From UHGV virus genome UHGV-0208676: a stretch of DNA of 11,800 nt; one strand, given 5' to 3'. Source of the DNA: a virus. Every line of letters starts with the position of its first letter. Position 1 is the first letter of the stretch. Positions 6,824-9,920 of this stretch are shown piece by piece. A program made the translations under genes and the position numbers. The notes beneath the pieces were generated by a model that worked only from the letters and a program-made list of their open reading frames with translations, was not told where the DNA came from and did not search any database.

Positions 6824-7500
6824 GCAAATACACCGAACTAATCACGAACTACCACGCCACCAAACCTAAATTTCTTGCGCATGTTGATCTGATGACCCGG
6901 CCGCTTATTGATGTTGCGGCGGCCACCAGAGGGTTGATTACTGCATTTGATATTGACTCCGCGGTTGGTGTGCAACTTGACATTCTTGGATTGTGGATCG
7001 GACGTAGCCGTGTTGTCAGCCAGCCTATCTCAGGTGTCTATTTCAGCTGGGATACCGACGGGCTTGGATATGATCAGGGTGTATGGCAGGGGCCATACGA
7101 TCCTGATTCCGGATACATGTACCTCAGCGATGAAACTTATCGTGTCATCCTTAAAGCGAAGATTGCGATTAATAACTGGGACGGACGGAATGATTCGCTT
7201 CCGGTAATTCTTGACGCGGCAACAGCAGGATCCGGGCTGCGAATGCAGATAGTCGATAACCAGGACATGACGATATCGGTCTGGGTCTTTCCTGATACTG
7301 ATATTTCAGATGTATCGCGTGAGTTAATTGCGGCAATTAAACAGGGGTATCTAACAGTAAAAGCCGCCGGGGTATGGGCGGGGGGCATTGAAACACCTTC
7401 GGTGGAAACTCCATCGGAAGGCTCTAAATTTTTTGGTTTTGATATGGATAACGAATTCATCAGTGGTTTTGATGTAGGGGCATGGGGAGTATTACTCTGA
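6820..7500 (+). CDS. Baseplate wedge / tail-fibre attachment protein (P2 gpI-like, Mu gp48 / YmfQ-like position)
   Basis: 226-aa ORF overlapping the J-like stop by 4 nt (ATGA) and overlapping the fibre start (TGATG at 7498-7502); canonical position between J and the fibre. Confidence 0.7.
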   Translation: MSKYTELITNYHATKPKFLAHVDLMTRPLIDVAAATRGLITAFDIDSAVGVQLDILGLWIGRSRVVSQPISGVYFSWDTDGLGYDQGVWQGPYDPDSGYMYLSDETYRVILKAKIAINNWDGRNDSLPVILDAATAGSGLRMQIVDNQDMTISVWVFPDTDISDVSRELIAAIKQGYLTVKAAGVWAGGIETPSVETPSEGSKFFGFDMDNEFISGFDVGAWGVLL

Positions 7501-9920
7501 TGGCAAAAAATGACTTTAAAGCATTCGCAACGGGTAAAAATGCCAATGTTATGTCGCAGGAGGAATGGGAAGCGTTGCCTGCGCTTTTATCCGGATTTAC
7601 AGCAGGGAAAGCATCCAGTGCGCAAGTCAATAAGGTTATTCGGCAGGCCAGCTTTATTGCTGCAGCTCTGGCCCAGTTTGTAAGTGACAAAACGCAACGG
7701 GATGTGCTTGATAATGGTGATCTGCCCGGTTTTGTTGAATTGCTGGGATCGGGGTTTGCTGTTGAATACCTGAGCCGCAAGAATCCGTTTGGCGATATCA
7801 AATCGGATGGCACGGTAGAACGCGCTCTTGAAAATCTGGGGTTACAGGATGTAAAAGCTGGTTCATTGAACAATCTGTACACTAACCATTCCCGTAGTGT
7901 CTTAATGGAATTGCCGTTATTATTCCCAGACTACGATACAGTGCTGGCTGCTCAGTCTGGTGCGGAATATATGTATCCACAGGGATTTGTGGTGACAGGA
8001 GAAAAAATCTATCTGAGTTATACCGTTGAGCCAAAGCAGACACGGAACGTTATAGTTCAGTACACAACATCCGGCGAATATGAGGGATATTATTATGTCG
8101 ATAATGGAGGTCGTGGCGTTGTCAGCGAAGGCCTTGTGGTGACAACGGATTACGGTGGATTACGTTTGTTCATGTCAGGAGAAAATGGATTACTGAAACA
8201 GTTTTCGCTTGATGGGGCAATTTCTGGTTCAGTATTGCCGTTAATTGATGAACATGACGTCGGTGTTTACAACCAGTTCAGCTATCGTAAAAACCGCTGG
8301 GTGGTTGAACAGTCAGCGCCGGAAGTGGGAGGCCTGATCACCCGCACAGTATTTGCGGTGTATGATTTTCAGTTTCGTCGGACGGGGACATTCACATTAC
8401 CGTTGCATGATTCCGGATATATCACGGAAAGCACAGACAGCTATGCAAGACGCTTCACAAAACGTCAGGGAATTGCTGTGGGAGACGATTATATTGCCTG
8501 TTCTTATGGTGGCTATTTTAATACCGGGGCATCAGCCGGATTTAACCAGTTTCAGGGGGTTAAGGTCTTTTCTCCGGATGGAGTAAAGCTGCAGGAATCC
8601 ATTCTTCATCCCCAAAAAATGATAGATGTGCTTACCAGCCAGGGTTTTACACCTTCGCGCATTGAGAACGAAGGAATTTGTATTTCTGACGACGGCGGCA
8701 GTATATATTCGCTTTATATCTTTCTGGAGCGTGGGTTACCACAGGCTTATCAGAAAGGAATTGTTCTGATGAAAGAGTTCAGTACTGGCAGAGATGCTAT
8801 TGATTTTCGTCAGGCAGCCTGGTTGTACACGGGGTTTGATGTGTCTCATGCCAGTATTGGAACATTTCCCCGTAGTGCCCAGGGGTTGGTAAATCCGGTG
8901 CTGGGGACTGTATTCACATCACTGTCTGAAATTCTGGCATATATGCGCTCTGTGAGTCAGAAATGGTTTTGTCTGCATACAACCACGACACCGATTAAAG
9001 ATCTGAGTGGAAATGATATTCCTGCTGACAATTATGTGTTCATCAAGAATGCTAATAACCAGACATTCTATATAACGCAGGAGTCAGCTGAAGGTGGAAT
9101 AAAATATAAAGCTGTCACCACAGGCAGCGGAGAATATGGTTTTCAGCGACAAAGAGAGGCAACCTGGTCCAATGTTATCACCATCGCACAAAAGAGCGAT
9201 GGTGAGGACCAGTTTAATCGTATTGTTGCCGCATCGAAAAGTGGTTCAGGTAACAATCAGGATAAAATACTGGTAGTTGACCAGCAGGCATCAGAGGGGA
9301 ATAACACACTGATAATTGGCGGTGCTTCATCTGTGTTCAGGTCAGCGACAGTGATTGATTTTGCAACGAATCAGGATGCAAATGCCACTGGAGGAGAAAA
9401 AAGATGGCGCATAGATTCATCAGGAAATCTCCGCCCTTATACAGATAATACGTATTCGATCGGTTATGCCTCATGGCGACCCGCACAGGTTTATGCAGCT
9501 ACAGGAAGTATCAGTACATCAGACCGGACTCGTAAACAGGACGAAACAATTCTGTCGGATGCAGAAAAAAGGGTTGCCAGAAAGTTGCTCGGGTATATCT
9601 GTCGGTTCCGTTTCAGGGATGCTGTGTCCAGCAAAGGGAATGCTGCCAGATGGCATGTAGGAGTGATTGCCCAGGACGTACAGAAGGTATTCTCTGAGGA
9701 AGGGCTGGATGCTTTTGATTACGGTATTTTGTGTCGTGATGAATATCCGGCGGAATATGAAGTGGTTTACGGGACTCGTATGGAGCTTGGTCCTGATGGA
9801 CTCCTTGCAATGGAAGAATACGATACCGGAGAGCGTAAGCTGGTCAGGGAGGCTGGCGAAATAATGTCTGTAAGGAATGATGAGCTGCATTATTTCATGT
9901 TGGCATCGCTGGCCAGTTAA
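7500..9920 (+). CDS. Tail fibre / tailspike protein with C-terminal intramolecular chaperone (peptidase S74-like) domain
   Basis: Start placed at ATG 7500 (GGGGAG RBS 10 nt upstream, TGATG coupling) rather than the ORF-track 7482. Conserved fibre N-terminal anchor ([19 protein letters not shown]...[17 protein letters not shown]). C-terminal 133 aa (9519-9917) has S-D-x3-K (STSDRTRK) and [11 protein letters not shown] motifs typical of auto-cleaving chaperone domains. Confidence 0.75.
   Translation: [806 protein letters not shown]

Follow-up and report, generated by a model that had tools for sequence, protein, structure and literature searches.

How does a tail fibre fold when no gene for a separate assembly protein accompanies it? 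The question is raised by the virus genome UHGV-0208676, an 11,800-nucleotide (nt) stretch that was analysed over its full length and is called the window here, in which a tail fibre gene (7500-9920) lies near the end of a prophage. The first-pass annotation of this DNA had proposed that the fibre carries its own C-terminal chaperone instead of relying on a U or Tfa protein. Our analysis leads to the same answer. With a probability of roughly 85%, the gene encodes a homotrimeric receptor-binding protein of five modules, including a built-in S74 chaperone that makes a Tfa/U-type gene unnecessary. The observations behind this reading are the identity of the domain, the conservation of its mechanism residues, the lack of a tfa gene in the window, the gene arrangement of a sister phage and purifying selection on the gene.

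An S74-type chaperone domain at the C-terminus of the fibre

The Pfam profile PF13884 (Peptidase_S74) matches fibre residues 674-736 over its full length (positions 1-58 of 58) with 38.2 bits and an E-value (E) of 1.7e-9, above the gathering cut-off of 22 bits and far from what chance would give. In a phmmer search of PDB sequences, the best match is the T5 tail fibre pb1 (4uw8, E 4e-17, fibre residues 632-764), followed by 7y5s (E 1e-14), the CIMCD of the K1F endosialidase (3gw6, E 8e-14, fibre residues 609-798) and the GA-1 neck appendage (3gud, E 1.5e-13). The K1F endosialidase is the type example of MEROPS S74. Both motifs noted in the first-pass annotation lie exactly within the last 133 residues: S-D-R-T-R-K occupies residues 674-679 (nt 9519-9536) and the second, 11-residue motif occupies residues 721-731 (nt 9660-9692). 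The segment that begins with Ser674 and runs to the C-terminus comprises 133 residues with a computed mass of 15.2 kDa, and the remaining N-terminal product would have 73.6 kDa. The chaperone released from T5 is likewise 133 residues long.

Alignment with the crystallised proteins places the catalytic residues. Ser674 (codon 9519-9521) aligns with T5 Ser1264 and K1F Ser911, which are replaced by Ala in the uncleavable crystal mutants 4uw8 and 3gw6, respectively, and Lys679 (codon 9534-9536) aligns with the catalytic lysines T5 Lys1269 and K1F Lys916. The mechanism proposed for T5 involves Asp1239, Arg1250 of the neighbouring chain as a folding sensor, Thr1263, Ser1264 and Lys1269 (PMC4690869). 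Through the 4uw8 alignment these map to Asp649 (codon 9444-9446), Arg660 (codon 9477-9479), Thr673, Ser674 and Lys679, and all five are present. The predicted Ser-Lys dyad is found where it had been placed, together with the upstream Asp/Arg sensor residues. Asp649, Arg660, Ser674 and Lys679 are invariant in 10 of 10 S74-bearing sequences (the query and nine homologues), and position 673 is Thr or Ser. Three relatives with the same propeller and without the S74 domain (P0010-P0012) end at approximately the cleavage point and have other residues at the mechanism columns. The gene neighbourhoods of one homologue with the domain (P0003) and one without it (P0010) were checked for a chaperone gene that tracks its loss; the neighbours in both carry no informative annotation.

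An AlphaFold2 model of the monomer, of moderate confidence in this region by the predicted local distance difference test (pLDDT), has helices at residues 687-699, 705-715, 724-733 and 793-802 and a hairpin at 752-783 within residues 684-806. These helices, the long β-hairpin and the C-terminal helix fit the chaperone topology. Foldseek searches with the model retrieve 3gw6 (E 2.8e-9) and 4uw8 (E 3.6e-8), both with a probability of 1.0. By every sequence-level test of family membership, the C-terminus qualifies as a genuine intramolecular chaperone domain of the S74 type.

By analogy with the K1F endosialidase and T5 pb1, three chaperone domains would trimerise first and template the folding of an intertwined stalk. 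With the stalk properly folded, Arg660 of the neighbouring chain, held by Asp649 and Thr673, would complete an oxyanion hole. Lys679 would then activate Ser674, the Thr673-Ser674 bond would be cut and the 15-kDa chaperone would leave a mature subunit of 73.6 kDa. A Tfa/U-type assembly gene would not be needed because the folding help would be built into the fibre itself.

No separate assembly gene in the window, two in a sister phage

In an effort to find a separate chaperone, all open reading frames (ORFs) of the window were searched against Pfam, PHROGs and NCBIfam, with no match to Caudo_TAP (PF02413), the family of separate fibre chaperones that includes Mu U, lambda Tfa and P2 G, or to any other tail-fibre-assembly family. 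The same search finds two Caudo_TAP genes in the sister phage vB_EcoM-683R1 (hereafter 683R1). NCBIfam has no family for the fibre and none for the ORFs of the gap at 9921-10121. The first-pass annotation had seen no U/Tfa gene between the fibre and an invertase remnant, which agrees with our finding of no assembly-family match in 9921-10442; a tfa-like gene overlooked in the gap was also sought, and only a hairpin and a fragment of a 97-amino-acid (aa) ORF family lie there (Table 1). The invertase remnant was likewise recognised correctly, and it lacks the first ~80 codons, i.e., the N-terminal catalytic part. The ORF fragment is without both ends of its family, has no match in Pfam or NCBIfam and is not a Tfa. 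It is 93% identical to part of WP_000355360.1, an intact copy beside tfaR'/pinR in the Rac prophage of BL21.

Other ORFs of this region were considered as hidden chaperones and rejected. The 74-aa ORF at 9938-10162 is a two-ended fragment of the 97-aa family, and the minus-strand ORFs at 9952-10335 and 9957-10205 have no matches and run antisense to the invertase remnant.

The sister phage indicates what may have stood here before. Its DNA shares 99.8% identity with window 1-3195 and 96.7% with window 4487-7843, and fibre residues 1-115 are 95.7% identical to its 'side tail fiber'. At the corresponding position, 683R1 has a 264-aa stf and a tfa, then tfa' and the stf' tip in inverted orientation, and an invertase; both tfa and tfa' match Caudo_TAP. 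Inverted repeats of 20 nt, separated by 1794 nt, flank the invertible segment of this phage (L005 7333-7352, partner 9147-9166). The homology with the window ends at 7843, within the left inverted repeat. For window 7773-10077, in turn, the counterparts at 97% identity are fibre genes of Mu-like prophages (YmfQ/StfP-type baseplates), which occupy two other sites in the chromosome of E. coli DA33137, and the fibre gene of the same prophage, again next to pphA, in strain P4. Since the homology to 683R1 ends at 7843 and that to the StfP-type fibres of DA33137 starts at 7773, the 70-nt overlap (residues 92-115) marks the splice joint. Both the fibre of the 683R1 type and those of the StfP type in Mu-like prophages have this joint.

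From these boundaries we infer that a cassette of ~7773-10077, comprising propeller, stalk, S74 domain and hairpin, replaced a Tfa-dependent invertible module. Lost in this swap would be the two fibre tips (variable and alternative), the pair of tfa genes, the crossover site on the right and the 5' third of the invertase gene, and splicing at the conserved joint and crossover site would have left one degenerate site and a headless invertase. The two Caudo_TAP genes of 683R1, whose baseplate and fibre N-terminus are the same, bear out the idea that the built-in chaperone stands in for a lost separate one. The same cassette is found behind StfP-type, P2 tail-collar, P22 head-binding, Gp66-type and T7-fibre N-termini, and the association of one body and chaperone with such diverse N-termini is standard modular exchange.

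Little of the inversion system remains in the window. A search for a second crossover site downstream of the fibre with AAACCNNGGTTT at up to two mismatches returned five matches, none past 8647 and at chance level, and an inverted-repeat scan gave no suitable pair for the site at 7826-7850. The window therefore has a single degenerate site without a partner and an incomplete invertase, and not a Gin/Pin-type invertible segment.

The invertase of 683R1 (L005 9228-9542) is also truncated. It keeps the N-terminal ~86 residues and then loses frame, so that its remnant (N-terminus only) is the mirror image of that in the window (C-terminus only). Window 10078-10378 holds a longer invertase remnant and more of the 97-aa ORF fragment than the three other cassette copies (L001 11784-11952, L002 and L004), where the invertase is reduced to its last 64 nt and a 169-bp filler of unrelated sequence is present. 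All three align with the window again from 10379 onwards, which implies that the invertase piece travels with the cassette, even across prophage types. The mobile cassette, whose conservation extends to 10077, includes the hairpin behind the fibre stop codon. The hairpin lacks a T-run, and a terminator scan found no canonical intrinsic terminator past the fibre gene.

Integrity of the gene and alternative readings

Several points weigh against a self-chaperoning, functional fibre. The AlphaFold2 monomer model has pLDDT values below 50 for residues 550-683 and of 40-83 for residues 684-806, although low values in the stalk are expected of a monomer model of an intertwined trimer. Self-cleavage and trimerisation are deduced, the former from residue conservation, and chaperone action, receptor type and the route of the swap are likewise deductions. 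A truncated invertase and ORF fragments show that the end of the prophage has decayed, and expression of the fibre is thus only presumed. Our view covers 11.8 kb, and a chaperone gene could lie elsewhere in the prophage; the upstream ORFs at 3304-4077 and 4064-4459 match no family of known function.

These points bear first on whether the gene is still in use. The domain could be genuine and the gene a relic, in a defective prophage whose fibre is no longer expressed or assembled and where the absence of Tfa merely reflects decay at the prophage end. We consider this unlikely, although it is the strongest of the alternatives. Debris lies directly downstream (the 97-aa ORF fragment, an invertase without N-terminus and a single degenerate crossover site), the prophage directly abuts chromosomal pphA (10904-11563) and yebW past the invertase remnant with nothing further, and RefSeq annotates the gene as split in relatives. 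In the latter, RefSeq/PGAP reports a partial 'phage tail protein/StfP' pseudogene and a 'tail fiber domain-containing protein' (L001 9201-11624, L002 5776-8151, L004 2624-4999). The reading frame is nonetheless open over 792-816 codons in the related copies and intact in all four independent loci, window included. We therefore rejected the pseudogene label; the split is a recurrent annotation artefact that affects many E. coli genomes.

Sequence differences between the copies point the same way. Compared with the three other copies, the window has 31-32 synonymous and 11 non-synonymous differences, of which the chaperone part contributes 11-12 and 2, respectively. The resulting ratio of non-synonymous to synonymous rates (dN/dS) of ~0.10 signifies purifying selection, which indicates that the fibre gene is probably functional or was so until recently. 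Selection of this strength and mechanism residues that are all intact argue against a relic. So does the clean splice at a conserved joint, which is common to different prophage types at three chromosomal sites and is unlike random erosion, and so do the S74-bearing homologues of lytic phages, which keep the same domain order past the N-terminal adaptor.

Less probable still is a fibre that continues to depend on a chaperone in trans, whether from a gene beyond the window or from one of the ORFs at 3304-4077 and 4064-4459, with the S74 domain as an accessory only. These two ORFs without assigned function lie in a variable island of the baseplate module, and the visible DNA is only part of the prophage. 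However, Tfa-type genes directly follow their fibre gene in the sister phage, no library gave a Tfa-like match, and the S74 proteins of K1F and T5 need no further phage factor to fold when they are produced on their own (PMC4690869). In pairs of related phages described in print, moreover, each phage has either a built-in chaperone or a Tfa and not both (PMC11990801). Least probable of all is an inactive S74-like domain retained as the distal tip of the mature fibre, which is conceivable in that cleavage is a prediction here, and which is opposed by a Ser-Lys dyad and Asp/Arg sensor residues invariant across the family and by the relatives without the domain, which end near the cleavage point as the natural end of the mature protein.

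Architecture of the fibre gene

The fibre gene is read from an ATG at 7500 to a stop codon at 9918-9920, with a second candidate ATG at 7482; the ATG at 7500 overlaps the TGA of the preceding DUF2612 baseplate gene. PHROG 11303/1396, which are families of tail-fibre N-terminal adaptors, span residues 1-134. Stalk residues 632-673 align with the mature C-terminus of T5 pb1 (4uw7, 5aq5; phmmer, PDB sequences), and Pfam gives a weak End_tail_spike (PF12219) match at residues 638-673. The S74 domain extends to the stop codon.

Table 1. Features of the fibre locus, in window coordinates
Feature	Residues or size	Position (strand)	Basis or remark
Tail fibre/tailspike gene, intact ORF	806 aa	7500..9920 (+)	PHROG tail spike / tail fibre families, E 3e-125
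N-terminal baseplate adaptor, lineage-specific	1-91	7500..7772 (+)	Near-identity to the vB_EcoM-683R1 fibre
Conserved joint, KNPFGDIK...LENLGL	92-115 (24 aa)	7773..7843 (+)	Cassette splice point
Degenerate invertase crossover site, CTTGAAAATCTGGGGTTACAGGATG		7826..7850 (+)	2-mismatch match to AAACCNNGGTTT; position of the 683R1 left repeat
Five-bladed β-propeller, presumed receptor-/glycan-binding body	~130-445	7887..8834 (+)	AlphaFold2, Foldseek
Small β domain behind the propeller	~460-550	8877..9149 (+)	AlphaFold2 pLDDT 60-80; conserved in homologues
C-terminal trimerisation stalk (predicted), includes Asp649, Arg660, Thr673	551-673	9150..9518 (+)	T5 pb1 matches
Intramolecular chaperone / peptidase S74 domain	674-806 (133 aa, 15.2 kDa)	9519..9917 (+)	Pfam, PDB sequences, Foldseek
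Hairpin, perfect 11-bp stem, directly past the fibre stop		9929..9957 (+)	-16.6 kcal/mol, z -3.46
Fragment of the 97-aa ORF family, no known function	~33-43 codons	10028..10142 (+)	PHROG 1443 positions 42-84 of 97; PHROG 34165
Pin/Gin-type DNA invertase remnant	C-terminal 106 codons (106 aa)	10122..10442 (+)	Resolvase profile 89-144 of 145 and HTH_7; PHROG 125 positions 100-202

A candidate receptor-binding propeller

Residues ~130-445 are modelled as a five-bladed β-propeller with pLDDT values of 85-94, and Foldseek searches of PDB and BFVD agree. The fold is that of the phi11 Gp45-type five-bladed platform, and its closest neighbours are the receptor-binding proteins of the staphylococcal phages phi11 (Gp45), 80alpha, P68 and NF5; tblastn recovers staphylococcal phage proteins at 23-30% identity. 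To our knowledge, this fold has been solved to date only from staphylococcal phages. The homologue alignment has invariant polar propeller residues at E210, R263, E270, Q271, K321-R322-Q323, E389-N390-E391 and R411. These suggest a conserved site, for which glycan binding is a candidate function.

Podovirus relatives that are 37-46% identical carry the label 'endo-N-acetylneuraminidase', which we rejected for this propeller. A phmmer search of PDB sequences gave no match of the fibre to the sialidase part of K1F endoNF, and the propeller has five blades, not the six-bladed sialidase propeller with catalytic residues of an endosialidase (GH58). The label most likely reflects the shared stalk and chaperone only.

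More tentatively, and with rather more doubt than confidence, the cassette may represent an uncharacterised enterobacterial class of receptor-binding proteins, in which a phi11-Gp45-type propeller with possible glycan-binding or depolymerase activity is joined to an endosialidase-type stalk and chaperone as a self-sufficient mobile unit. If so, possession of a chaperone would be the very reason why the cassette can pass between myo-, podo- and P22-like adaptors, and its entry at an invertase crossover site would hint that such sites act as docking points for foreign fibre cassettes.

Comparison with known systems

The L-shaped tail fibre pb1 of T5 (4UW7/4UW8) is the closest counterpart of the C-terminal region, with the best sequence match, the five mechanism residues and a chaperone of equal length, and the homology continues into the final 40 residues of the mature fibre. 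T5 is a siphovirus, however, its pb1 has 1396 aa, and its receptor-binding tip, a 'bullet' domain, immediately precedes the cleavage site, whereas the present propeller lies far upstream and is followed by a stalk. The K1F endosialidase (endoNF/CIMCD, 3GW6) has the same order as predicted here (adaptor, β-propeller, trimeric stalk, self-cleaving chaperone), and differs in its six-bladed sialidase propeller from the five-bladed, phi11-like propeller of the prophage fibre. The receptor-binding proteins of phi11 (Gp45, 5EFV), 80alpha, P68 and NF5 belong to phages of Gram-positive hosts and bind wall teichoic acid GlcNAc. Matches to them cover the propeller only, not the stalk or S74 domain, and their stem and tower domains differ.

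Stf-Tfa-Pin modules (the Mu G, P1 C and e14 P segments, and 683R1) share the fibre N-terminus, the KNPFGDIK joint, the position of the crossover site and the downstream invertase. Unlike them, the prophage has no variable tip, Caudo_TAP genes, alternative tip, second site or invertase N-terminus.

Alternation between the two solutions has a precedent in the BASEL Teseptimavirus pair, in which MeretOppenheim has a fibre with a built-in chaperone and EmilieLinder has a fibre and a separate Mu-like Tfa (PMC11990801, S7 Fig). These close relatives likewise carry either a built-in chaperone or a downstream Tfa at the same fibre position; they are lytic podoviruses, unlike the prophage, and have no invertible-segment ancestry. 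Phage databases contain many proteins annotated as 'Peptidase S74 / intramolecular chaperone auto-processing domain', and the closest cluster contains 365 E. coli sequences. An S74 chaperone in place of Tfa is an already published (PMC11990801) and routinely annotated arrangement.

The locus mostly confirms known biology, namely that S74 intramolecular chaperones make receptor-binding modules self-sufficient and therefore easily exchanged between phages. It adds a natural before/after pair with the same baseplate and fibre N-terminus: 683R1 with a Tfa-dependent invertible tip, and the prophage with a predicted self-chaperoning propeller spike. The pair fixes the splice point (the KNPFGDIK...LENLGL joint and the crossover site), which could help in the design of chimeric fibres or tailocins. 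The phi11-like propeller is a candidate receptor-binding protein that is widespread in E. coli prophages.

Baseplate context and neighbouring elements

The baseplate genes are of the Dit-like / Pam3-gp18 / E217-gp41 / DUF2612 type and represent the distal portion of a prophage tail module of the myovirus type. The Mu/e14-type affiliation assumed in the first-pass annotation therefore fails for the baseplate and holds for the fibre N-terminus, the joint and the invertase, which are of the Stf-Tfa-Pin kind.

In the Rac prophage of BL21, upstream of tfaR'/pinR, the stfR tip is replaced by three small ORFs (L003 2332-3650) of 245 aa (with weak Laminin_G_3/CBM matches), 92 aa and 97 aa. The last of these belongs to the family whose fragment survives at window 10028-10142.

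The ORFs at 3304-4077 and 4064-4459 match PHROG 17809 and 5176, with no Pfam match, and make up a variable two-gene island at 3196-4486 in a baseplate module that is otherwise 97-99.8% conserved. At this position, 683R1 and E. coli strain P4 each bear different genes.

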